From: an uncultured Verrucomicrobiae bacterium
Lineage (GTDB): Bacteria; Verrucomicrobiota; Verrucomicrobiia; Chthoniobacterales; Terrimicrobiaceae
Direction: 5' to 3'
Length of the DNA: 64,000 nt
Assembly (NCBI GenBank): GCA_963706955.1
Contig: CAVPOC010000005.1
Span: 32,001-96,000 of the forward strand
Positions 5,484 through 28,921 of the stretch are shown here, piece after piece. Under the pieces are notes generated by a model, which searched no databases, was not told the DNA's origin, and worked only from the letters and a program-made list of their open reading frames with translations. The position numbers were made by a program, and so were the translations under genes. The number at the start of each line of letters is the position of its first letter. The first letter of the stretch is position 1.

Positions 5484-8065
<2,582 letters not shown>

Positions 8066-8211
8066 CAAAATCTCTACAAAATTTGCAAATATCTATAAAC
8101 CCCAGAAGATACGAATGCTCGGCCTGATACACAATGTTTTTTTACCCTAGAAAGCGGTCCAATATGCAGCATTTAGTGGGGCCGGCCTCTCGCTCCCACA
8201 AGATATTGGGG

Positions 8212-9775
8212 GTGATAGGCAAAAAATCGCTCCGTTAGCCGGAATTGTCGTTTGCCTGGGGATCTTTGGCTTTCTTCAAGCTCACAAAGCTCGGTTTATC
8301 TTCCTGCCGGACGGGGTGCACTTCGTCGATGCGGACTGCTATTCACGGATGACGCGGGCGCGAATCATTTCGGCGCAACCAGGCACCTTGATCACTCGGC
8401 ACGCGTTCGAGAACTATCCTTATGGAGTTCGTCCGCATACGACCGCACCGATGGATTACTTGATCGTTGGATTCGGTCGGCTTCTCGGCGCCGGAGTAGA
8501 TCTAGATATCGCGGGTGCGTGGATTTCACCTTTTTGGGCGGCTTCCTCATCATACTGGCAGGGCTTTGGGCTGAGGCAAGACCATCCCCTATCGATGGAG
8601 CATGATGGTGCTTCTCTCTACTTCGCCAGTGATCCTTCACGGCTTCGCGGTGGGCAGGCCCGACCACCAGTCGCTAATCTTGCTCTTAGATCGCTAGCGG
8701 GCTAATGGCTGAAGCGGTTCTGTGGACGAGCCGGTCGTCGGCGACTTCATTATGGTGGGGACTTTCCTGGGGTGGCGCGCTTTGGGTATCGTGGTTTGAA
8801 CCGCTTCTGATTCTGGCACTTGTGCTAAGTGTCCGCGTGGTGGTGTGGCGCAGTCAATGCCCTGGCGAAAACCTGGATCCCCTCCCTGGCGATGCGCAGC
8901 AATCGATTGCCTTGTTAGCGATTCTGCTTGAGGGGCTTCCTAGCGATGGTCTTGAGCGAAATCCGATGTCCTCGTTCCTGCAGTGGGCTGGCAGAATCGG
9001 CGAATTGCAATCATTCAATCCAGTCTCCGCCTCGATCGCCTGGATCGGGTGGCTATCTCTGCTTTTGCCATTCGGATTGGCATGGATGGCATATACAGCG
9101 AAATGAAACGATCTGCTGGCTGTGGCTGGTGCTTTTGCTCTCCATGGGTGCACTGACCGGCTGGCATGCGAGATGGGGCTATTTTCTTGCCGTGAGCGGG
9201 GCACTTGCGATGCCGTTTGCGCTGGCGATAGTTCGCCAGCACTGGCTTGGCTACGCGCTTTTCATCGCAAGTCTCTGGCCGGTCGCTCTGACGCTTGACA
9301 ATGAGCTATTTCCGCATGGAAAAACCGCGCGTTACCGTAATTGGATAACCTCCACGAAACCCAGCAACTTCGTCGTGCGGCCGAGGACATCAAGAGTCGT
9401 GACGGTGACGGAATTCTCGCTCCGTGGTGGCTGACACCTCAATTGGTTTATTGGTCCGGAAAAAAATGGTGTTGCGGGCAGTTCACACGAAAGTCTGGCA
9501 GGCACTCTGGATACTGCTCGCTTCTTCACTTCACAGGATGAAGAGGAAGCCAGGTCCATTCTCCGAATGAGCGGAGGCTGGATTTCGTCGTGGTCTGCGA
9601 CGCGGACCGACTGCTTGACAATTCCTACACCGTGCTCGGCCAAACAAGTGAACCGAATCAATCAACTCGCGGTCACCCTGTTTCGAACCCCCTCCCGATC
9701 TCCAAACTACCTGCATCTAATGTCGCAAAATCCATACTTCAAGATCTACAGGTCGATAAAGAGTTGCTCAAGTAA
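8212..9775 (+). CDS. STT3/AglB-like (GT-C) membrane glycosyltransferase, fragmented by several frameshifts; ends approximate
   Basis: Fragments give FVDADCYSRMTR...HAFENYPYG, RPDHQSL, multiple TM helices and a late GILAPWWLTPQLVYWSG segment at the position of the WWDxG motif. Confidence 0.55.
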
Positions 9776-18493: not shown

Positions 18494-18570
18494 CCGAGCG
18501 GCTTCTCGACTCAACGCGTTTTTTGCCGTGCATTCTTGACGGCGAGGTTGCCGGACCGTACGCTTAGCTC

Positions 18571-19967
18571 ATGCCCCTACTCAGACCCAGATCCCACTTT
18601 TTACCCTTCCCCCCGCCTCGCTATGCAGGCGCCTCCCGAGACGCTCGCTTATGTCGCGGCACTCAATCCTCCCGGAAGTAAGCTCCACGATGCCATCCTT
18701 GTGATCGATGTGGATCCGGCATCGCCGAGCTATGGGAAGCGCATCGGGCAAACCGTTCTTCCCCATGCCGGAGACGAATTGCACCACTTCGGGTGGAATG
18801 CCTGCAGTTCGGCACTTTGTCCCTACGCGCCGCATCCACACGTCGAACGCCGCTATCTTGTCGTGCCGGGAATCCGCTCTTCGCGCATCTACGTGTTGGA
18901 TACCAAGCCGGATCCTCGCAATCCCTCGATCGTAAAGATCATCCAACCTGAGGAGGTTCTTGCTCGAACCGGCTATTCGCGTCCGCATACCGTTCACTGC
19001 GGACCCGAGGGCATCTACGTCAGCGCGCTCGGCTCACCGAGTGGAGATGGTCCGGGCGGCATCTTCCTGCTGGATCACTTTAGCTTTGATGTCCTGGGAA
19101 AATGGGAAATGGACCGTGGACCCCAGTATCTCGGCTACGATTTTTGGTGGCATCTGACCCAGGACACGCTCTTGACCAGCGAATGGGGGACACCGAACCA
19201 GATCGAGAACGGCGTCATTCCCGAAGAGCTTCTGCAAAGCAAATACGGCCACCAGTTGCACGTTTGGGACCTGCGCAAGAGACGGCACGTTCAGGCTCTT
19301 GACCTGGGAAAAGAGCATCAAATGGTTCTTGAGATGCGCCCGGCGCACGACCCGACGAAAACCTACGGGTTTGTCGGCGTGGTTGTTTCGCTTGAAAGAT
19401 CTCAGTGCTTCGGTTTGGCTTTGGCATCGCCAAAACGGCAACTGGCAAATTGAAAAAATCATCGAAATCCCGGCGGAGCCGGCAGACGCCGATCAGTTGC
19501 CCGCGCTGCTCAAGGGGTTCAATGCGGTTCCCCCTTTAGTTACCGACATCAATCTCTCTCTCGATGATCGCTTTCTCTACGTCTCCTGCTGGGGGACCGG
19601 AGAGATGCTGCAATATGACGTTTCCGATCCGTTCAATCCCAAAAAGACCGGCTCGGTGCAGATTGGTGGAATTGTGCGGCAAACACCGCATCCGGCAAGA
19701 CCCGAGCAGCCGTTGCAAGGTGGGCCGCAAATGGTCGAAGTAAGCCGCGATGGAAAACGCATCTACTTCACCAATTCTCTCTACGCGGCCTGGGATGAGC
19801 AGTTCTATCCCACGGGCGTGGGAAGTTGGATGGCAAAGCTCGATGTCAACTCTGAAGGTGGCATCAGCTTCGATAAGAGATTCTTCCTTCAGTCGGATGA
19901 CTATCGTGTTCATCAAGTCCGCCTGGAGGGTGGCGACTCCTCGTCCGACTCTTACTGCTATCCGTGA
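18571..19967 (+). CDS. Selenium-binding protein SBP56 / methanethiol oxidase family (apparent +1 indels near 18589 and 19393)
   Basis: PDPTFYPSP, GDELHHFGWNACSS, SSRIY, PHTVHC, GYDFWW, GGPQM..SRDGKR, GGDSSSD-type terminus. Confidence 0.9.
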
Positions 19968-20652: not shown

Positions 20653-23600
20653 TCATCGGACATCCACGACCGGTTGGTAAGTCGGTTGTGGCGCGGGCAC
20701 TTTTCGTGGCTTAGAGATTCTGCGAATCAGCACATAGAAGACCGGCGTGAGAAAGACGCCGAAAATAGTCACCCCCAACATTCCCGAGAACACAGCTGTG
20801 CCCAGCGTCTGTCTCATCTCGGCGCCGGCGCCAGTTCCGATTACGAGCGGAATCACTCCGGCAATGAAAGCAAACGAAGTCATCAGAATCGGGCGCAGTC
20901 GGAGCTTGCAGGCATCGATTACGGCTGAAACCGGATCTTTGCCCTCGTCCTCGATCTGTTTGGCGTACTCAACGATAAGGATCGCGTTCTTACAGGCGAG
21001 CCCGACGAGGACGACGAAGCCAATCTGGGTGAATATATTGTTGTCCATCCCCCGCAATAACACTCCTGCCAGGGACGAGAGCAGACACATCGGGACAATG
21101 AGAATAATAGCAAAAGGCAGGGCCCAGCTCTCATATTGCGCCGCAAGGGTCAGGAACACGAAGAGGACGCAAAGCGGGAAAATGTACAGGGCGGTGTTTC
21201 CTGCCAGAATTTGTTGAAACGCCATGTCGGTCCATTCAAAACCAAAGCCCGGCGGAAGTAATTGGCGAGACAACTGCTCCATAATGCTAATAGCGTCACC
21301 GGAACTATAGCCAGGGCTGCTACTTCCTGAGATCGCCGATGCGGTATAGAGATTATAGCGCGTGATAAAGGCCGGACCGTAAGTCTCTTTGATCGATGCC
21401 ATGGTACTCAACGGGACCATCTGTCCGGCGACGTTCCGCGTCTTCAGCTTGAGAATATCGGCTGGGGTGACGCGGAATTTGCTGTCCGCTTGCACGTTCA
21501 CCTGGAAGGAGCGTCCCAGAAACGTAAAGTCGTTCACATACGCGGATCCTAAGTAGATTTGCAGCGCGTCAAAGATGTTGTTGAGCGGCACATCCATGCT
21601 TTTCGCTTTCGAGCGATCGACGTCGACATAGATCTCGGGAGTTTCCGCGCGAAAGCCGGAGAACATGCCAACCAGCTCAGGTCGCTTTTCCCCAGCATCG
21701 ACCAGACTTTGCGAGACCGCCTCGAGTTGTTTGAAATTGCCGCCGCGACGATCCTGGACCATCAAGTTGAAACCGCCGGTGCTGCCCACGCCCTGAATCG
21801 GAGGCGGGCCGAAGGCCAGGATCAGAGCCTCCGGGATGGTCGAAAATTTCTTCCTGAGATCACCGACAATCGCATCGGCGGTAAGGTTGGGACCCTTTCG
21901 CTCGTGAAACTCATCCAAGATCACGAAGAGCGAAGCGACGTTTGACGTCGAGGTGCCGGTGAGGATTGAAAATCCGTTGATAATAAGGGTCGTCTTAACG
22001 CCCGAAGTCTCTTTGATCATCGCCAATGCTTTGGCGGTGACCGCTTGGGTTCGCTCGAGCGAGGCGCCGTCGGGAAGTTGACAGCCAACCAGCAGGTATC
22101 CTTGATCCTGCTGAGGAACAAAGCCGGTTGGAGTGATCCTAAATCCGTAGCCAGTCAAGGCGAGCAAACCGGCGTAGAGGATCATGACGATCACGACCTT
22201 GCGCACCAGGCCGGCCACTGATCGTCCGTACCTCTCGATCATCCAATCGAAGCCGCGGTTAAATCCCCTGAAAAACCAGCCGAAGGTCGCATTAAAGAAT
22301 CGCGTTAGGATGTCCTTCTGCTCTCCATGCGGCTTCAAGAGTATCACACTCATCGCCGGGCTCATTGTCAGCGAGTTGAATGCCGAGATGATTGTCGAGA
22401 CCGCTATGGTAAGAGCAAACTGACGGAAGAATTCACCGGAGATTCCGGTCATAAATGCCGTCGGGATGAACACCGCGGACAAGACCAAGGCGACCGCTAT
22501 CACAGCTCCACCGACTTCATTCATGGCCTGACGGGCGGCGTCGCGTGGCGATAGTCCAAGACTAAGCTTATGTTCGATCGCTTCGACGACGACGATCGCA
22601 TCATCGACCACGATCCCGATCGCAAGAACAAGACCGAAAAGCGAGATTGTGTTAAGTGAAAATCCGAAAGCTGCCATGGCCGCAAACGTCCCGATAAGAG
22701 AAACCGGCACGGCGATAAGCGGGATGATTGCAGCCCGCCACGTTTGCAGAAATAACATCACGACGATCGCGACGAGGAGGACAGCTTCAATCAGGGTGTG
22801 CTGAACCGCAGAGATCGACTCGCTGACGAAGACGGTCGTATCATAGACGATCCTGTAATCGACGCCCTTCGGGAAATCCTTCTTAAGCCTCTCCATCGTC
22901 TTGCGAATCGCCTCGGCGGTGGAAAGCGCATTGCTGCCAGGCAACTGATAGACGGCCAAGGTTGCCGTGGGCTTGTCGTCGAGCGTAGATTTAACCGCAT
23001 AAGACTTGGCGCCGATCTCGACCGAGCCGAGTTCACTCAGCCGGACAACTTCACCTCGCTCGCCGCGTTTGACGACAATGCGGGAGAATTCCTGCGGATC
23101 GATCAAGCGGCCCTGGGCATTGACGACCAGCTGAAATTCGGTGCCCTGGGGAGCCGGCTGCTGGCCAACTATGCCAGCGGCAACTTGCCTGTTCTGTTCC
23201 TGCACGGCCGCGACTACGTCGGAGGCGGTCAGCCCGAGCGATGCCAGTTTGTTCGGATCCAACCAGATCCGCATCGAGTACTCGGAGCCGAAGATGTTGA
23301 TTGCGCCGACGCCTTCGACTCGTGCCAATGTGTCCTTGACTTGAAGAATCGCGTAGTTGTTGAGATAGAGCTCGTCGCGCGAATTGTCTGGGGAGATCAA
23401 ATTCACGCACAGGATCATCGAGGCAGACTGCTTGTTGACGGAAACACCCGTGCGTCGAACCTCCTCGGGTAAGATAGGCAGGGCAAGGTTGACGCGGTTC
23501 TGCACAAGCACCTGTGCCGTATCGAGGTCGGTGCCCAGCTTGAAGGTAATCGTCAACGCATACGAACCGTCGCTCGCTGACTGCGAGGACATGTAGAGCA

Positions 23601-23829
23601 TGTTCTCGACGCCGTTAACCTGCTGTTCAATGGGCGCCGCGATCGTTTCGGCGATCGTCTTGGCATTTGCTCCGGGAAAGCTCGCCGAAACCTGGACCGT
23701 TGGCGGAACAATATCTGGATACTGAGCAATCGGCAAAGTCAGCAAAGCAATGCCGCCAACGATCGTGATGACCAGGGAAAGAACCGTCGCAAAGATCGGA
23801 CGGTCGATAAAGAACTGACTGATATTCAC
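20653..23829 (-). CDS. RND efflux permease, HAE1 family
   Basis: 1058 aa; FFIDRPIFA, GIVVDDAIVVVE, KNAILIVE, RLRPILMTS. Confidence 0.96.
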   Translation of the reverse strand: MNISQFFIDRPIFATVLSLVITIVGGIALLTLPIAQYPDIVPPTVQVSASFPGANAKTIAETIAAPIEQQVNGVENMLYMSSQSASDGSYALTITFKLGTDLDTAQVLVQNRVNLALPILPEEVRRTGVSVNKQSASMILCVNLISPDNSRDELYLNNYAILQVKDTLARVEGVGAINIFGSEYSMRIWLDPNKLASLGLTASDVVAAVQEQNRQVAAGIVGQQPAPQGTEFQLVVNAQGRLIDPQEFSRIVVKRGERGEVVRLSELGSVEIGAKSYAVKSTLDDKPTATLAVYQLPGSNALSTAEAIRKTMERLKKDFPKGVDYRIVYDTTVFVSESISAVQHTLIEAVLLVAIVVMLFLQTWRAAIIPLIAVPVSLIGTFAAMAAFGFSLNTISLFGLVLAIGIVVDDAIVVVEAIEHKLSLGLSPRDAARQAMNEVGGAVIAVALVLSAVFIPTAFMTGISGEFFRQFALTIAVSTIISAFNSLTMSPAMSVILLKPHGEQKDILTRFFNATFGWFFRGFNRGFDWMIERYGRSVAGLVRKVVIVMILYAGLLALTGYGFRITPTGFVPQQDQGYLLVGCQLPDGASLERTQAVTAKALAMIKETSGVKTTLIINGFSILTGTSTSNVASLFVILDEFHERKGPNLTADAIVGDLRKKFSTIPEALILAFGPPPIQGVGSTGGFNLMVQDRRGGNFKQLEAVSQSLVDAGEKRPELVGMFSGFRAETPEIYVDVDRSKAKSMDVPLNNIFDALQIYLGSAYVNDFTFLGRSFQVNVQADSKFRVTPADILKLKTRNVAGQMVPLSTMASIKETYGPAFITRYNLYTASAISGSSSPGYSSGDAISIMEQLSRQLLPPGFGFEWTDMAFQQILAGNTALYIFPLCVLFVFLTLAAQYESWALPFAIILIVPMCLLSSLAGVLLRGMDNNIFTQIGFVVLVGLACKNAILIVEYAKQIEDEGKDPVSAVIDACKLRLRPILMTSFAFIAGVIPLVIGTGAGAEMRQTLGTAVFSGMLGVTIFGVFLTPVFYVLIRRISKPRKVPAPQPTYQPVVDVR

Positions 23830-23832
23830 GTT

Positions 23833-25044
23833 CTATTTCGCAGCCTGGGTCGTCGCTGCAGCCGGCGTGGCAGAATCCGCAGGCTTGGGATCTACCTTCT
23901 CACCGGGGCGCACCTTCAGCAGTCCGTCCACCACAACGGTCTCACCGACTTGCACTCCGCTCTTGACCACCTGCATGGTGTCGAAAAGCGTTCCAAGTTC
24001 GACCGGTTGAAACTCAGCCGCATTCTCCTTGTTGACGACGACGACATACTTCTGGCCTTGATCGGACGCCACACAACGCTCCGGCACCAGAATGGCGTTG
24101 TATGGCAATCCCGCGGGAATGCGTACCCGAACGAAGAGTCCTGGCCCAAGCAGACCATTTTCGAAGTCGAAGACGCCTCGGATCCGGATGGTGCCCGTCG
24201 ATGGGTCGACACGATTGTCGAGGAAGTCGATGTAGCCGGTATGCGGAAAGCCTGTTTCGTCCTGTAAAGACAACTCGATCGGGATCTTCACTTCGTCCGC
24301 ATCTTCGGGCCCCTTTTTCTTACTCTGGTAGTAGCGGACGTAACGGAGCAATGAACGCTCATCGACATCCGCATAGGCGTAAACTGGATTCGTCGAGACG
24401 ATCGTCGTCAATGGATCCTTGCCATCGGCGGAGACAAGGTTTCCGACGGTGACATTCGCGAGTCCCGCCCGGCCATCAATCGGTGCTGTCACGGTGCAGA
24501 ACTCCAGATTTAGCTTAGCCCTTTCCAGGGCTGCGCGGGCGGACTGGAAAGCTCCGGTGGCCTGCTGAAAGGTTGCGGCGCGCTGATCGAAATCTCCCGC
24601 AGCCGTGACTCCTTTGTCCCGCAGTTGTCGTGCCCGGTCAAAATCGGCGGAGGCCAGCTTCAAGGCGGAATCAGCTTTGTCGAGCTCCGCCTTGGCTTGC
24701 TCGTAGTCCGCCTGATATGGTCGCGGGTCGATGATGAAGAGCGGCTGGCCTTTCTTGACGAGGTCGCCGTCAACGAATTTGACCTCCGTAATGTAGCCGC
24801 TCACGCGAGGTCGGACGTCGACCGTTCCCATCGGAGCGAGGCGGCCGGTATATTCGTCCCAATCTTGCACTTGCTTTTCAACGGCCTGGGTGACGGTGAC
24901 GATTGGCGGTGGCAGCTCCAGCGCCTCCTGCTTCTTACAAGCGCTTACGGCCGCAAGCGCCAGCCAAAAGAGTAAGGTGGTCCGCAAAGGCAAACGGAAT
25001 GCGGCGAAGGGCGAGCGATCCGAAAGAGTGTTCGAGCGCACCAT
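23833..25044 (-). CDS. RND efflux periplasmic adaptor (MFP), lipoprotein
   Basis: VSA-C lipobox, VRPRVSGYI, APIDGR, DPSTGTIRIR. Confidence 0.93.
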   Translation of the reverse strand: MVRSNTLSDRSPFAAFRLPLRTTLLFWLALAAVSACKKQEALELPPPIVTVTQAVEKQVQDWDEYTGRLAPMGTVDVRPRVSGYITEVKFVDGDLVKKGQPLFIIDPRPYQADYEQAKAELDKADSALKLASADFDRARQLRDKGVTAAGDFDQRAATFQQATGAFQSARAALERAKLNLEFCTVTAPIDGRAGLANVTVGNLVSADGKDPLTTIVSTNPVYAYADVDERSLLRYVRYYQSKKKGPEDADEVKIPIELSLQDETGFPHTGYIDFLDNRVDPSTGTIRIRGVFDFENGLLGPGLFVRVRIPAGLPYNAILVPERCVASDQGQKYVVVVNKENAAEFQPVELGTLFDTMQVVKSGVQVGETVVVDGLLKVRPGEKVDPKPADSATPAAATTQAAK

Positions 25045-25166: not shown

Positions 25167-25682
25167 ATGACTCGAAAGGAAGCAATCATTGTAGGCGCGG
25201 CCAGCCTCTCCGCTCTGGCGATGGCCGCACAATCCGGGCGGGCCGAAGAGGCGGCGGAACAAAATCCCGAAGTAACGAAAATCTGGGCGCTTCTTAAGGC
25301 ACACGACGAAGCCATGGCGAACCATGATCTTGGTGGCGTCATGAAATGTCTGACCGAAAAGGCCGCTATCATGGGCACCGGCCCCGGCGAGTTTTGGGTC
25401 GGGCCGGAGGAGATCAAAATAGCTTATGAACATTTCTTTGAGACCTTTGACAAGGGCGCGCAGGATTTTCAGTATCAGTTCAGGATCGGTGGCGTCGGCA
25501 CCGACATGGGTTGGCTGATGGCGTCCGGGAATGTAGCCGCTAAGAAGGATGGCAAGGAGTTGACCTTTCCCTTGAATATTTCCCTGACAGTCGCAAAGAA
25601 ATCGGAAGAATGGCGCATCGCCGCCATGCACTTCTCCACGTTGACCGGAGACATGGGAAGCCACGAGAAAAAGAGCAGTTGA
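25167..25682 (+). CDS. Exported SnoaL/NTF2-like fold protein
   Basis: Signal-like N-terminus; AHDEAMANHDL..GTGPGEFWVG..WRIAAMHFS pattern typical of SnoaL-like proteins; 9 bp upstream of the RiPP precursor. Confidence 0.75.
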   Translation: MTRKEAIIVGAASLSALAMAAQSGRAEEAAEQNPEVTKIWALLKAHDEAMANHDLGGVMKCLTEKAAIMGTGPGEFWVGPEEIKIAYEHFFETFDKGAQDFQYQFRIGGVGTDMGWLMASGNVAAKKDGKELTFPLNISLTVAKKSEEWRIAAMHFSTLTGDMGSHEKKSS

Positions 25683-25691
25683 TCAAACGTT

Positions 25692-26009
25692 ATGAACCCT
25701 GAAGCATCGAATGAGGGAAACGTGCAGGCGGAGAACCAGGAGTCGTTGAATCGGCGATTGTTCTTGCGGAGCCTCGGAAAGTGGTCGGGTGCGGCGGCGA
25801 TTGCGGCTGTCGCTGGAGGAGTTTGGATCGCCTCTTCGCCAAAGGCAGCTGCGGGCTGGTTAAATCGAAGAGGAGTAGTTCGGGGCGGAGGTTGGATCAA
25901 TGGCGGAGGTTGGGTCAATCGAGCAGGAGGATGGATTAATGGTGGTGGTGGTGGTGGTTGGATCAATCGGCGTGTCGGCGGCGGCGGCGGCTGGATCAAT
26001 CGCTGGTAA
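25692..26009 (+). CDS. Putative RiPP precursor: Tat-type leader plus Gly/Arg-rich core with six WxN motifs (GrrA/XyeA-like triceptide motifs)
   Basis: NRRLFL twin-arginine motif, hydrophobic stretch, KAAA|G cleavage site, then GWLNRRGVVRGGGWINGGGWVNRAGGWINGGGGGGWINRRVGGGGGWINRW; lies upstream of an rSAM/SPASM gene. Confidence 0.85.
   Translation: MNPEASNEGNVQAENQESLNRRLFLRSLGKWSGAAAIAAVAGGVWIASSPKAAAGWLNRRGVVRGGGWINGGGWVNRAGGWINGGGGGGWINRRVGGGGGWINRW
25854..26006 (+). repeat. Six GGN-TGG-NTN-AAT (G-W-[ILV]-N) coding repeats separated by Gly/Arg linkers
   Basis: ggctggttaaat, ggttggatcaat, ggttgggtcaat, ggatggattaat, ggttggatcaat, ggctggatcaat. Confidence 0.9.
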
Positions 26010-26027: not shown

Positions 26028-26870
26028 ATGCCTCAGGAAGCTGAGATCTTATCCTTCCGGGAGGCTGACTCGAAAGAGAACTCGGACATCGGTCCGTTTG
26101 TAGTCGTCGTTAGAGATTCTCAGCAGATGGGCATATGGCTGCGCGATCGTTCTCCGGCGCTTCAATGGATCCAGGTCGAGGGAGTTTTAAAGGATGACGA
26201 CGTCTGGCGCCTTGCTGCCGAAGACCCTGGCGAAGTGCCGCTCGATGTCATCCTGATCGACCCGGGCAGAGAGTTCGCGGACCTCTATCGGTTGGTGGAC
26301 GTGCGTTCGGCGCGCGATGTTCGCGTCAGCATGCCCGCACGACCCGGATTTCTCAAGGCAGTCCGACTGGCTGCCTCTCTTGGCCTGCCGGTGCGACTCC
26401 TTCCCCAGCAGCCAACAGCCGATGTCTTAGCTGAGCTTCAGGAAGCCCTGACATTTTATCTGCGCAATCCGCTGGTGGAAGCTCCCATCGAATTTTTCCA
26501 TTCGGCCCTGGCCTGGCTCAGAGGGGCACCGACAGGTTCGCTTTGGAGAGTTCTTGAAGAAGATCCCTCGATCTACCAACGCAAGGCGATCAGCACGGCG
26601 TGGGACTCGCCGCAACTCTCGGACCTCCCCATCGATCCTACACAAGACTTTGGCTCCCTATTCTTAGAGCGGCTCACACAGCAGGGCGGCGAATGTGCCA
26701 CCTGTCGCTGGCGTGATTTCTGCGCAGGCTACTTTAAGTGGCCGACTCCTGAATATTCTTGCACGGGCGTTAAACTGCTCTTTTCGAATCTGCTTGCGGC
26801 CGTCAAAGAGATCGAGGACGACTTCCGGACCTTTGCAGCGCCAACTGCTGAACTGCAATCCTCATTATGA
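26028..26870 (+). CDS. Uncharacterised RiPP-cluster protein with a C-terminal partial SPASM-like Cys motif
   Basis: 280 aa, no CxxxCxxC; C-terminal ECATCRWRDFCAGYFKWPTPEYSC; ATGA overlap with the rSAM start. Confidence 0.7.
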   Translation: MPQEAEILSFREADSKENSDIGPFVVVVRDSQQMGIWLRDRSPALQWIQVEGVLKDDDVWRLAAEDPGEVPLDVILIDPGREFADLYRLVDVRSARDVRVSMPARPGFLKAVRLAASLGLPVRLLPQQPTADVLAELQEALTFYLRNPLVEAPIEFFHSALAWLRGAPTGSLWRVLEEDPSIYQRKAISTAWDSPQLSDLPIDPTQDFGSLFLERLTQQGGECATCRWRDFCAGYFKWPTPEYSCTGVKLLFSNLLAAVKEIEDDFRTFAAPTAELQSSL

Positions 26871-28058
26871 ATCGTCGCGTTTTCAGCGTCATTCTTCTTC
26901 CAACGTCAGATTGCAATGTCGCCTGCGAATACTGCTTTGAGCGAAAGGAGAAGCATCGACTTTCAACGAACCTGCTGCCATTGCTGACAACTCGCCTGCT
27001 CGATCATCTCGAGAACGAGGGAATCACGGAATGCGAAGTTTACTGGCAAGGCGGAGAGGCGATGATCATGGGACCGGAGTGGTTCGTCGCAGCCGGGCGG
27101 CTTATGGATCGCGCAGCCGCGGAACGAGGACGTCACTTCATCCACTATCTTCAGACCAACCTCATCAGCTATACCGAATCCTGGAACGAAGTCTTGCGAA
27201 CGATGTTCCAGGGGTCGTTGGGAACTTCCATGGACTATCCCAACCATCACCGGAAGTTGTTCAACGGCGGCCCCGAGGCCTATACGCGTTTGTGGACACG
27301 GAAGCTTAGAGCCGCGCAAGCCGCCGGGATCAAGGTCGGCGTCATCGCCGTGCTTCACCAGGGGAGTTTGGATGCGGGTGCCGGAGGACTTCTATCGCTA
27401 TTTCACGGAGGAACTCGGGCTGACTGACTTCCAAGTCAACACGCCATTTCCAGGTGGTCCCGCCGGGGAAGTTGAAGGCGCTTTTCAGCTCGAGACAAGC
27501 AAGTTGGCGAGCTTCCTTGCGAGGTTGTTCGATATCTGGATGGAGCGCGGTTTCGATGTCGGAGTGTCGCTTGGTCCGTTTGACGCATTGATTGACCACT
27601 TTACCGGCAGGCCGGCGCGATTGCCGTGTATTTGGAAAGAGAATTGTTCCAATCAATTCATCTCGATTGATTCCAAAGGGACGGTCGCTCAATGCGATTG
27701 TTGGGTAACGAGCTATCCCGAAAGCTTCTTCGGCAATATCTTTCGAGAGCCCGACCTTACCCGAATGCTAAGGACCAGCCCGGCGCGGCGCCAGTTCGTC
27801 GAGCGTCCCAAGCACCTCGTTGAACACGAAGATTGCCTCTCGTGTCGTTACCTTTCGATCTGCCATGGTGGCTGCCCCGTGCGGACATACACTGCCTTAG
27901 GGACGATGATGGCTAAGGATCCCTACTGCGAAGTTTACAAAGCGGTCTTCGGACGAGCGGAGGCTCACGGGCGAACGATAGCCGGGCGGCGCCTCCACAC
28001 TTTGCAAAAATCCGAATCACTCCCGTTCTCTTTTCACTCTGAACCCAAACTGCTGTGA
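26867..28058 (+). CDS. Radical SAM/SPASM maturase (anSME-like), one apparent +1 indel near 27381; about 396 aa when corrected
   Basis: CNVACEYC, WQGGE, LQTN, SMD; SPASM region C..NC..QCDC..CLSCRYLSICHGGC..DPYC. Confidence 0.9.
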
Positions 28059-28627: not shown

Positions 28628-28921
28628 ATGAACGCGCTGCAGAGACTTCAGGATTGTTATTCGGCGCAATGCGAAGGTGATCGGGACCACCAGCAGGGCG
28701 TTCGCATCGAGTCACTGGACAATCCGGGATGGGCGCTCGACATCGACTTGGCTGACACGGCTTTGGCCGACAAACCTTTCACGGAGGTCAAGCGCGGCTG
28801 CGAAGACACGACCGATTGGCTCATTTGCTTTCTTCCCGATGGCAAATTCATGGGAAGATGTGGTCCGCAGAAGCTTCAGGAAATGATCGGGGTGTTTTTG
28901 ACGTGGGCGGAAGAATCTTAG
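28628..28921 (+). CDS. Imm53-family immunity protein (cassette 2), possibly decaying
   Basis: QCEGDRDHQQGVRIESLDNPGW.LDIDL..DWL.C..F.GRCGP. Confidence 0.8.
   Translation: MNALQRLQDCYSAQCEGDRDHQQGVRIESLDNPGWALDIDLADTALADKPFTEVKRGCEDTTDWLICFLPDGKFMGRCGPQKLQEMIGVFLTWAEES

Follow-up and report, generated by a model that had tools for sequence, protein, structure and literature searches.

RiPP leaders are normally cut off by dedicated peptidases. The cassette described here raises the question of how a peptide modified in the cytoplasm could be exported and freed of its leader by machinery encoded elsewhere. It lies in the window, the whole stretch of 64,000 nucleotides that was analysed, from an uncultured Verrucomicrobiae bacterium, and consists of four closely spaced genes on the same strand in the order N-A-B-C. 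The initial annotation had read the leader of the precursor, gene A, as a twin-arginine (Tat) signal peptide through which a rigid, cross-linked core would be exported and released by housekeeping Tat and signal peptidase. The features of the cassette are listed below with their positions in the window, the strand and the basis of each assignment.

25167..25682, + strand: gene N, protein of NTF2/SnoaL_3 fold carrying an export signal of its own (an R-K variant in the window); domain match and fold
25692..26009, + strand: gene A, precursor of 105 aa (54-aa leader and 51-aa Gly/Trp/Arg-rich core); ORF translation and homologue search
25692..25751, + strand: acidic, variable n-region (aa 1-20); negative charge before RR across leaders
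25752..25766, + strand: twin-arginine motif R-R-L-F-L (aa 21-25); leader comparison
25773..25787, + strand: L-G-K-W-S (aa 28-32), candidate maturase docking element; conserved beyond the Tat consensus
25782..25841, + strand: uncharged Ala/Gly-rich h-region (aa 31-50); composition
25845..25853, + strand: A-A-A site for signal peptidase I (aa 52-54), cleavage predicted in front of G55; AxA enrichment in leaders
25854..26006, + strand: core with six W-[LIV]-N motifs (aa 56, 68, 74, 81, 90, 101); sequence and homologous cores
26028..26870, + strand: gene B, 280 aa, degenerate radical-SAM/SPASM-fold protein; structure model and Cys pattern
26867..28058, + strand: gene C, radical-SAM/SPASM enzyme whose reading frame is interrupted in the window by an additional base near 27383; profile search

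The leader of gene A and its conservation

The three elements of an export signal that had been claimed for the leader are all found in it. The Tat motif is N20-R21-R22-L23-F24-L25, with RR starting at nt 25752; the hydrophobic h-region is an uncharged stretch of 20 aa from W31 to P50 with a mean Kyte-Doolittle value of 1.15 (2.0 over the central 14 aa); and the AxA site directly before the first GWLN motif is A52-A53-A54, followed by G55-W56-L57-N58, which places the cut after nt 25853. In Tat signals the h-region typically spans about 13-20 uncharged residues, is rich in Gly and Ala and is moderately hydrophobic, which the window leader matches. NRRLFL in the window leader matches RR.[FGAVML][LITMVF], the pattern given as the TatP default (PMC1182353). 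When the first 55 aa are shuffled 20,000 times, 0.71% of the results meet this pattern and 0.025% meet it together with an h-region and a terminal AxA. Under a looser rule (pattern plus uncharged stretch), 52 of 3751 crudely called ORFs of the genome pass, many of which are plain membrane proteins, so that a single motif match proves little and the case rests on conservation; this ORF set omits precursor A itself, for which the ORF caller picked an antisense frame. Among Tat profiles, the window peptide matches TIGR02811 (formate_TAT) alone, at 17 bits against a cut-off of 48. It has no Pfam match and gives no hit to TIGR01409 or PF10518, two Tat models that weakly match 8/22 and 7/22 homologous precursors, respectively.

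The core of the window precursor contains seven Arg and no acidic residues, has an unmodified mass of about 5.3 kDa and ends in a terminal Trp after its six W[LIV]N motifs; W-x-N is the dominant motif of homologous cores. Gene A is single copy in its genome. A protein homologue search with it gave 1281 matches, and an ESM Atlas search returned unnamed clusters only, with recognition under the usual mark, the nearest named clusters (0.77-0.79) being leads only. In a verrucomicrobial subgroup (L015, L016, L019, L021 and related loci), Arg/Pro-rich cores of the type W-I-N-R-W-G-P-R-R replace the poly-Gly spacers; these cores resemble Trp/Arg-rich antimicrobial peptides. A promoter scan of the cassette region stayed near shuffle level and the accompanying terminator scan found no convincing terminator. 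Small contigs from RNA runs overlap N, A and parts of B and C, an overlap that cannot show expression.

Loci for the comparison of leaders were collected with an alignment of gene B, without use of RR, which gave 80 genome and 80 metagenome loci; leaders were located by the motif [KR]-W-S. Seventy-four genome loci yielded 77 leaders and L047 one more, making 78 precursors. The five genome loci without a leader comprise three that end too near B, L018, which has no leader, and L055, which has no precursor. The proposal had been tied to the retention of RR among homologues, and the pair is kept in 75 of these 78 precursors. The other three read K-R (L015, L053) and K-R-R-F-L (L022), so that the first Arg alone is changed to Lys, a replacement described as tolerated by Tat (PMC1182353). 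Over all 338 unique leaders from genome loci, metagenome loci and two protein searches, 334 have RR, three KR and one RH, counts that are inflated by the protein sets P0001-P0120 and P0391-P0510, which were picked by leader similarity, and that include kin that are not independent. Among the 115 unique leaders from genome and metagenome loci, the second Arg is present in all 115, Phe in 110 (Tyr in 4, Leu in 1) and Leu in 114. The TatP pattern fits 323/338 leaders, or 333/338 if Tyr is allowed. An origin of RR as a DNA-level artefact was ruled out, as synonymous Arg codons vary freely and all six are in use at both positions.

The layout around the pair is kept as well. The net charge of the 15 aa preceding RR is negative in 111/115 leaders, the uncharged stretch measures 11-29 aa in each of the 111 leaders with a scorable core, and in 108 of those 111 the first Arg stands 31-37 aa from the first core Trp. 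Leaders outside Verrucomicrobiota read [S/T/D/N]-R-R-[D/E/N]-F-L, and the acidobacterial ones match the TatP pattern in 14/14 cases. By record label, the precursors come from at least five phyla (Verrucomicrobiota, Acidobacteriota, Competibacteraceae, Nitrospirales, Vulcanimicrobiota and bacterium UASB14, which we take to be KSB3), a few of the bins being possibly mislabelled. At the level of sequence, this comparison confirms that the front end of gene A has the make-up of a conserved twin-arginine export signal.

Probable export and release, and the neighbour N

The initial annotation had also pointed to the lack of a dedicated protease and transporter, and this is borne out in the flanking genes: no C39 peptidase or ABC membrane domain occurs among 136 annotated proteins (of 189 called) from 20 of the 80 loci. 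The scattered matches found there comprise one soluble ABC ATPase, one MFS protein, two RND pumps, one trypsin-PDZ protein and one Lon-like domain. Genes for TatA/B, TatC and signal peptidase I are present in the source genome. Of the 80 genomes, 50 cluster-bearing drafts were searched for TatC; it turned up in 45 of them, and also in 11 of 14 control genomes; as it is near-ubiquitous in the controls, its presence is weak evidence. The system probably relies on the general Tat exporter and signal peptidase and not on a transporter or protease of its own.

Two other export systems lie in the neighbourhood. A MexE/MexF-like RND efflux pair is encoded at 20653-25044 (- strand) of the window, divergent from N; such a pair stands within 8 kb of the cassette in 15/80 loci, the window included, in variable position and orientation. 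About 70 kb off on the same contig (G000:C5:123500-130720), a C39-peptidase-containing exporter of about 1040 aa accompanies an HlyD-like gene, and downstream of it follow a regulator-like gene and five tandem peptides of 46-57 aa that share an almost identical Lys-rich front end but differ in their tails, which together look like a separate peptide system. Both were rejected as core parts, the pump for being missing from most loci with a changing arrangement, the exporter for having its own HlyD-like gene and five short peptides. We regard it as highly improbable that the precursor leaves by Sec, or by one of these exporters acting in trans, with RR being incidental. The Tat consensus is S-R-R-x-F-L-K, and paired Arg are described in some Sec signals as well (PMC5539426). 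However, Sec signals have a positive n-region, whereas that of the leaders is almost always acidic, and the h-region here is Gly/Ala-rich; the objections to the two exporters as core parts also count against their acting in trans.

Conservation of the cleavage site, the second element on which the proposal had leaned, holds in part: AxA is enriched across leaders and canonical in the window, but it is not universal, as 8 of the 14 acidobacterial leaders lack a small-x-Ala site. Of 330 leaders (8 of the 338 were dropped because their core was not scorable), 225 have an AxA no more than five residues away from the first core Trp, compared with about 100 when the ten residues concerned are shuffled. 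A relaxed small-x-small rule is passed by 328/330 leaders, but also by 265/330 shuffles. In the genome loci, a small-x-Ala site is present in 45/51 verrucomicrobial leaders (canonical AxA in 37/51), 6/14 acidobacterial and 10/12 other leaders, whereas the remaining eight acidobacterial leaders offer only [ATS]-x-G|W. A lipobox-like Cys is found in 5 of 9 non-acidobacterial leaders without small-x-Ala versus 6 of 200 that have it, and a KSB3-type paralogue carries L-[SP]-G-C (LSGC/LPGC) in three sequences. These counts are descriptive, kin among the leaders not being independent; they suggest that some signal peptidase site is under selection. In bacterium UASB14 (L077:5998-7894), four tandem precursor paralogues lie between N and B, all with R-R-[DE]-Y-L, and one of them combines a lipobox-like Cys with an acidic first core segment.

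The variation in this region bears on whether Tat export would be followed by release at all. The precursor might instead stay in the membrane, as a signal anchor or lipoprotein, or be cut by another protease, for example at N-R-R sites in the core, to give short single-ring units. The lipobox paralogues, the repetition of W-x-N-R-R in the core and the acidic -3 position relative to the nearest Ala in 8/14 leaders from Acidobacteriota, whose N is a lipoprotein, are in line with such an outcome. It nevertheless seems unlikely, given the canonical sites of the window and of most verrucomicrobial leaders and the [ATS]-x-G|W sites still on offer in the acidobacterial ones; release by signal peptidase I remains our preferred reading.

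Gene N, whose constant export signal the initial annotation had missed, is present in 68/80 genome loci. An export signal was found in all 53 loci in which N could be scored (33 RR, 11 RK, 6 lipobox, 2 Sec type and 1 degenerate), a count in which seven rows were reclassified by eye and from which 15 unparsed or truncated copies are left out. Its fold is generic NTF2-like with many tied structural matches and indicates no function. As N always carries an export signal, whatever the route, it points to a product located outside the cytoplasm. N also stands beside precursors with no maturase gene found adjacent (L173, L197). A Contendobacter bin (G430) holds five dispersed precursor paralogues (L173, L178, L180, L182, L184) with one shared leader and differing cores (W-Y-N, W-H-N, W-A-N and W-Y-D), which suggests combinatorial use of one maturase; A-B and N-A-C lie at separate loci in this bin. 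As a whole, the reading of the initial annotation is partly supported: RR is kept, and the best independent support comes from this neighbour with its export signal, while export and cleavage we infer.

Genes B and C and a possible second role for the leader

Gene B gave no family match in profile searches. Its structure model (pLDDT 77) aligns best with ChlB (Z 11.5, rmsd 4.1, 242 aligned), followed by anSME (Z 10.9), TigE (8.8) and 5wgg (8.8), ChlB and anSME being tied within 1 Z. A Foldseek search with B yielded no hit at E<=0.001, and an HHalign comparison of B with C is weak (probability 31%, E 5e-4, the C-terminal part alone). CxxxCxxC is absent from the first 120 aa of B in 114/114 full-length representatives and CxxCx5C is kept in 109/114; in the window protein, four retained Cys (C223, C226, C232, C245) are spaced as in a single auxiliary Fe-S site. 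From the model and the Cys pattern, B can be read as a degenerate radical-SAM/SPASM paralogue with one auxiliary Fe-S site. The B family forms 383 clusters at 50% identity. Five long homologues were scanned (P0309, P0314, P0346, P0326, P0334); in three of them the B-like domain is fused to radical-SAM domains and in the other two to DUF483, with or without a methyltransferase. The use of this family is thus not confined to cassettes of the present kind.

The SPASM domain of C scores 53 bits against a cut-off of 27. Three intact C homologues score 83, 93 and 78 bits against TIGR04261 (GrrM/OscB, cut-off 310) and 131-159 bits against DynA (cut-off 450); the DynA and anSME models together give 127-159 bits, far below cut-off, and C stays under every NCBIfam maturase cut-off, including that of every described cyclophane synthase. 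In a plasmid search with C, all matches were below 60% identity. The extra base that splits C in the window is probably an assembly error rather than the mark of a dead gene, because a contig (depth 6.5) of a near-identical strain from a soil run, with 6 differences in 1732 nt, lacks it and C is one frame in 69/73 loci. A gene for a selenium-binding protein (SBP56) at 18536-19967 (+ strand) of the window is likewise split over two frames, its L004 homologue being one ORF of 464 aa, and may represent a second assembly frameshift. Two genes past C, at 28628-28921 (+ strand), lies an Imm53 immunity-family gene that did not emerge as a conserved neighbour in clustering.

The conservation of the leader extends beyond its Tat motif. 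In a set of 48 leaders, entropy is zero at W, S, L and the second R. W-S is present in 75/75 genome loci with a readable leader and G-K is near-invariant, and neither of these two pairs belongs to the Tat consensus; the signal of N, unlike the W-S of the leader, varies freely. The leader helix would accordingly be read by something besides TatC, and the invariant G-K-W-S, which exceeds what Tat needs, probably docks the maturase. The earlier suggestion that the leader may double as a maturase recognition element is plausible on these grounds. In three acidobacterial loci (L067, L071 and L082, at about 7400-8700), the leader and B are kept and the core is short or broken; neither N nor C was found in these incomplete genomes, and the loci may represent either a relic or a minimal module. 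C has no N-terminal extension that could serve as a recognition element, its Cys motif beginning at residue 16. Because leader and B persist together in these three loci and C lacks such an extension, there are hints that B is the reader of the leader. A complex prediction of C, B and leader (48-row alignments) gave 0.80, with 0.01 and 0.00 when the leader was replaced and 0.75 when C was replaced, values that speak neither for nor against binding.

Pressed further, the same observations would make the leader a docking helix for B and/or C alone, perhaps descended from a Tat signal, with another protease freeing the product and no Tat export. The best argument for this is the persistence of leader and B without detectable C or N in the three acidobacterial loci. 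Conservation of the leader goes beyond the demands of Tat, and docking to a partner could by itself explain RRxFL; C without a recognition extension fits as well, and ChlB, the closest structural match of B, was solved with the leader of its precursor according to the PDB entry title. Such a role would, however, leave unexplained the enrichment of AxA, the lipobox swaps, the fixed spacing and the Lys variants confined to the first Arg, as well as the always-exported partner N and the missing dedicated exporter, and we consider it a minor contender. We therefore favour a leader that is both docking element and Tat signal.

Relation to known systems and a possible route

The cassette shares with the GrrA/OscA1-GrrM/OscB triceptide systems a Gly-rich precursor, a repeated aromatic-x-Asn motif and an adjoining radical-SAM/SPASM enzyme. 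OscB joins Trp-C7 to the C-beta of Asn/Asp at positions i and i+2 (PMC11002830). Aromatic-x-x motifs in a core next to a radical-SAM/SPASM enzyme, a feature of the triceptide class, are present here as the six W-x-N motifs. The precursor model TIGR04260 matches 13/22 precursors at E<=1 (best E 2.6e-9), but the window precursor reaches 10.4 bits against a cut-off of 31, with a match on the core only, and no precursor above the cut-off was found in any of five cluster-bearing genomes (0/5). Likewise, C at 78-93 bits differs from GrrM/OscB (310) and scores higher against the DynA and anSME models. The available part of the OscB account mentions no N, B or Tat motif, all of which are present here (PMC11002830). 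Judged by its sequences, the cassette appears to work like a triceptide cluster, yet falls outside GrrA/GrrM on both models. ChlB (PDB 9gm3/9gmc), a multiple-cyclophane synthase, heads the structural matches of B and is also related to C in sequence (E 5e-10); it differs in that B lacks CxxxCxxC and in that ChlB is described as acting on a YDR-type motif (PMC11499958).

With regard to the leader, TorA/TorD and NapA/NapD offer a comparison, as cofactor-bearing Tat substrates with signal-binding chaperones. Here too a Tat signal has extra conserved residues and is plausibly held by a cytoplasmic protein until its cargo is mature, but the cargo is a modified peptide of 5 kDa and the candidate chaperone is radical-SAM/SPASM-folded. 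In bufferins, oxazolins and other MNIO-modified RiPPs, the leader is likewise an export signal served by housekeeping machinery; theirs is a Sec signal combined with MNIO chemistry on Cys, unlike the Tat signal and radical-SAM chemistry on W-x-N considered here. Signal-peptide leaders, of the Sec type, have been called 'an original feature' of MNIO substrates, and on preliminary evidence the authors speculate that the signal peptide also belongs to the recognition sequence, with a partner protein masking it; 'Tat' and 'twin-arginine' occur 0 times in that paper (PMC12452194). A review of RiPP leader proteases has no occurrence of Tat, Sec or 'signal peptidase' (PMC10885120). No Tat-signal RiPP was found in the literature searched, mostly open papers, and the primary triceptide papers and their supplements could list the family. 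Within that literature, a radical-SAM peptide system with a Tat-type leader appears to be undescribed so far, RiPPs with Sec signals having already been published.

We consider it probable, from the sequence comparisons above, that Trp-Asn cross-linking in the cytoplasm is followed by Tat export, release into the periplasm by signal peptidase and contact with N. Precursor A would be made in the cytoplasm and retained there while C, probably helped by B, links Trp to Asn in each W-x-N, giving several three-residue cyclophanes by analogy with the products of OscB and XncB. Since C lies below all cyclophane synthase cut-offs, the Trp-Asn link in A is itself an analogy. The helix R-R-x-F-L-x-x-L-G-K-W-S would be read twice, its W-S region by the maturase machinery and RRxFL by TatBC. 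Tat would then carry the modified peptide over the inner membrane and signal peptidase I would cut at AAA|G, freeing the cationic 51-mer in the periplasm, whereas lipobox paralogues would remain anchored. The product would finally meet exported N, which may bind, shield or further process it.

The initial annotation had explained the use of Tat by the rigidity of a folded, cross-linked core. That part of the reading is probably not the main reason, as a Gly-rich peptide of 5 kDa would hardly be folded; a likelier gain lies in the post-translational action of Tat, which would leave time for Fe-S chemistry in the cytoplasm. A more specific version, which we put forward tentatively and hold possible rather than probable, makes B a signal-peptide chaperone that grips R-R-x-F-L...K-W-S and hides the helix from TatBC until C has closed all W-x-N rings. 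The polycyclophane would then be exported by Tat, freed or lipid-anchored by housekeeping signal peptidases and paired with N as a periplasmic component of the envelope, not as a secreted antibiotic.

The cassette is found in 14/18 genomes of one soil verrucomicrobial genus, and by record label its cultured carriers include Chthoniobacter flavus and Verrucomicrobium sp. BvORR034. If the proposed route is correct, Tat would be a post-translational exit for radical-SAM RiPPs without a cluster-encoded transporter or protease, which would explain the incomplete look of such minimal clusters and would give engineering efforts a route for the export of cross-linked peptides. Two further partners in the cassette are open to study, the degenerate radical-SAM/SPASM protein B and the putatively periplasmic NTF2 protein N.
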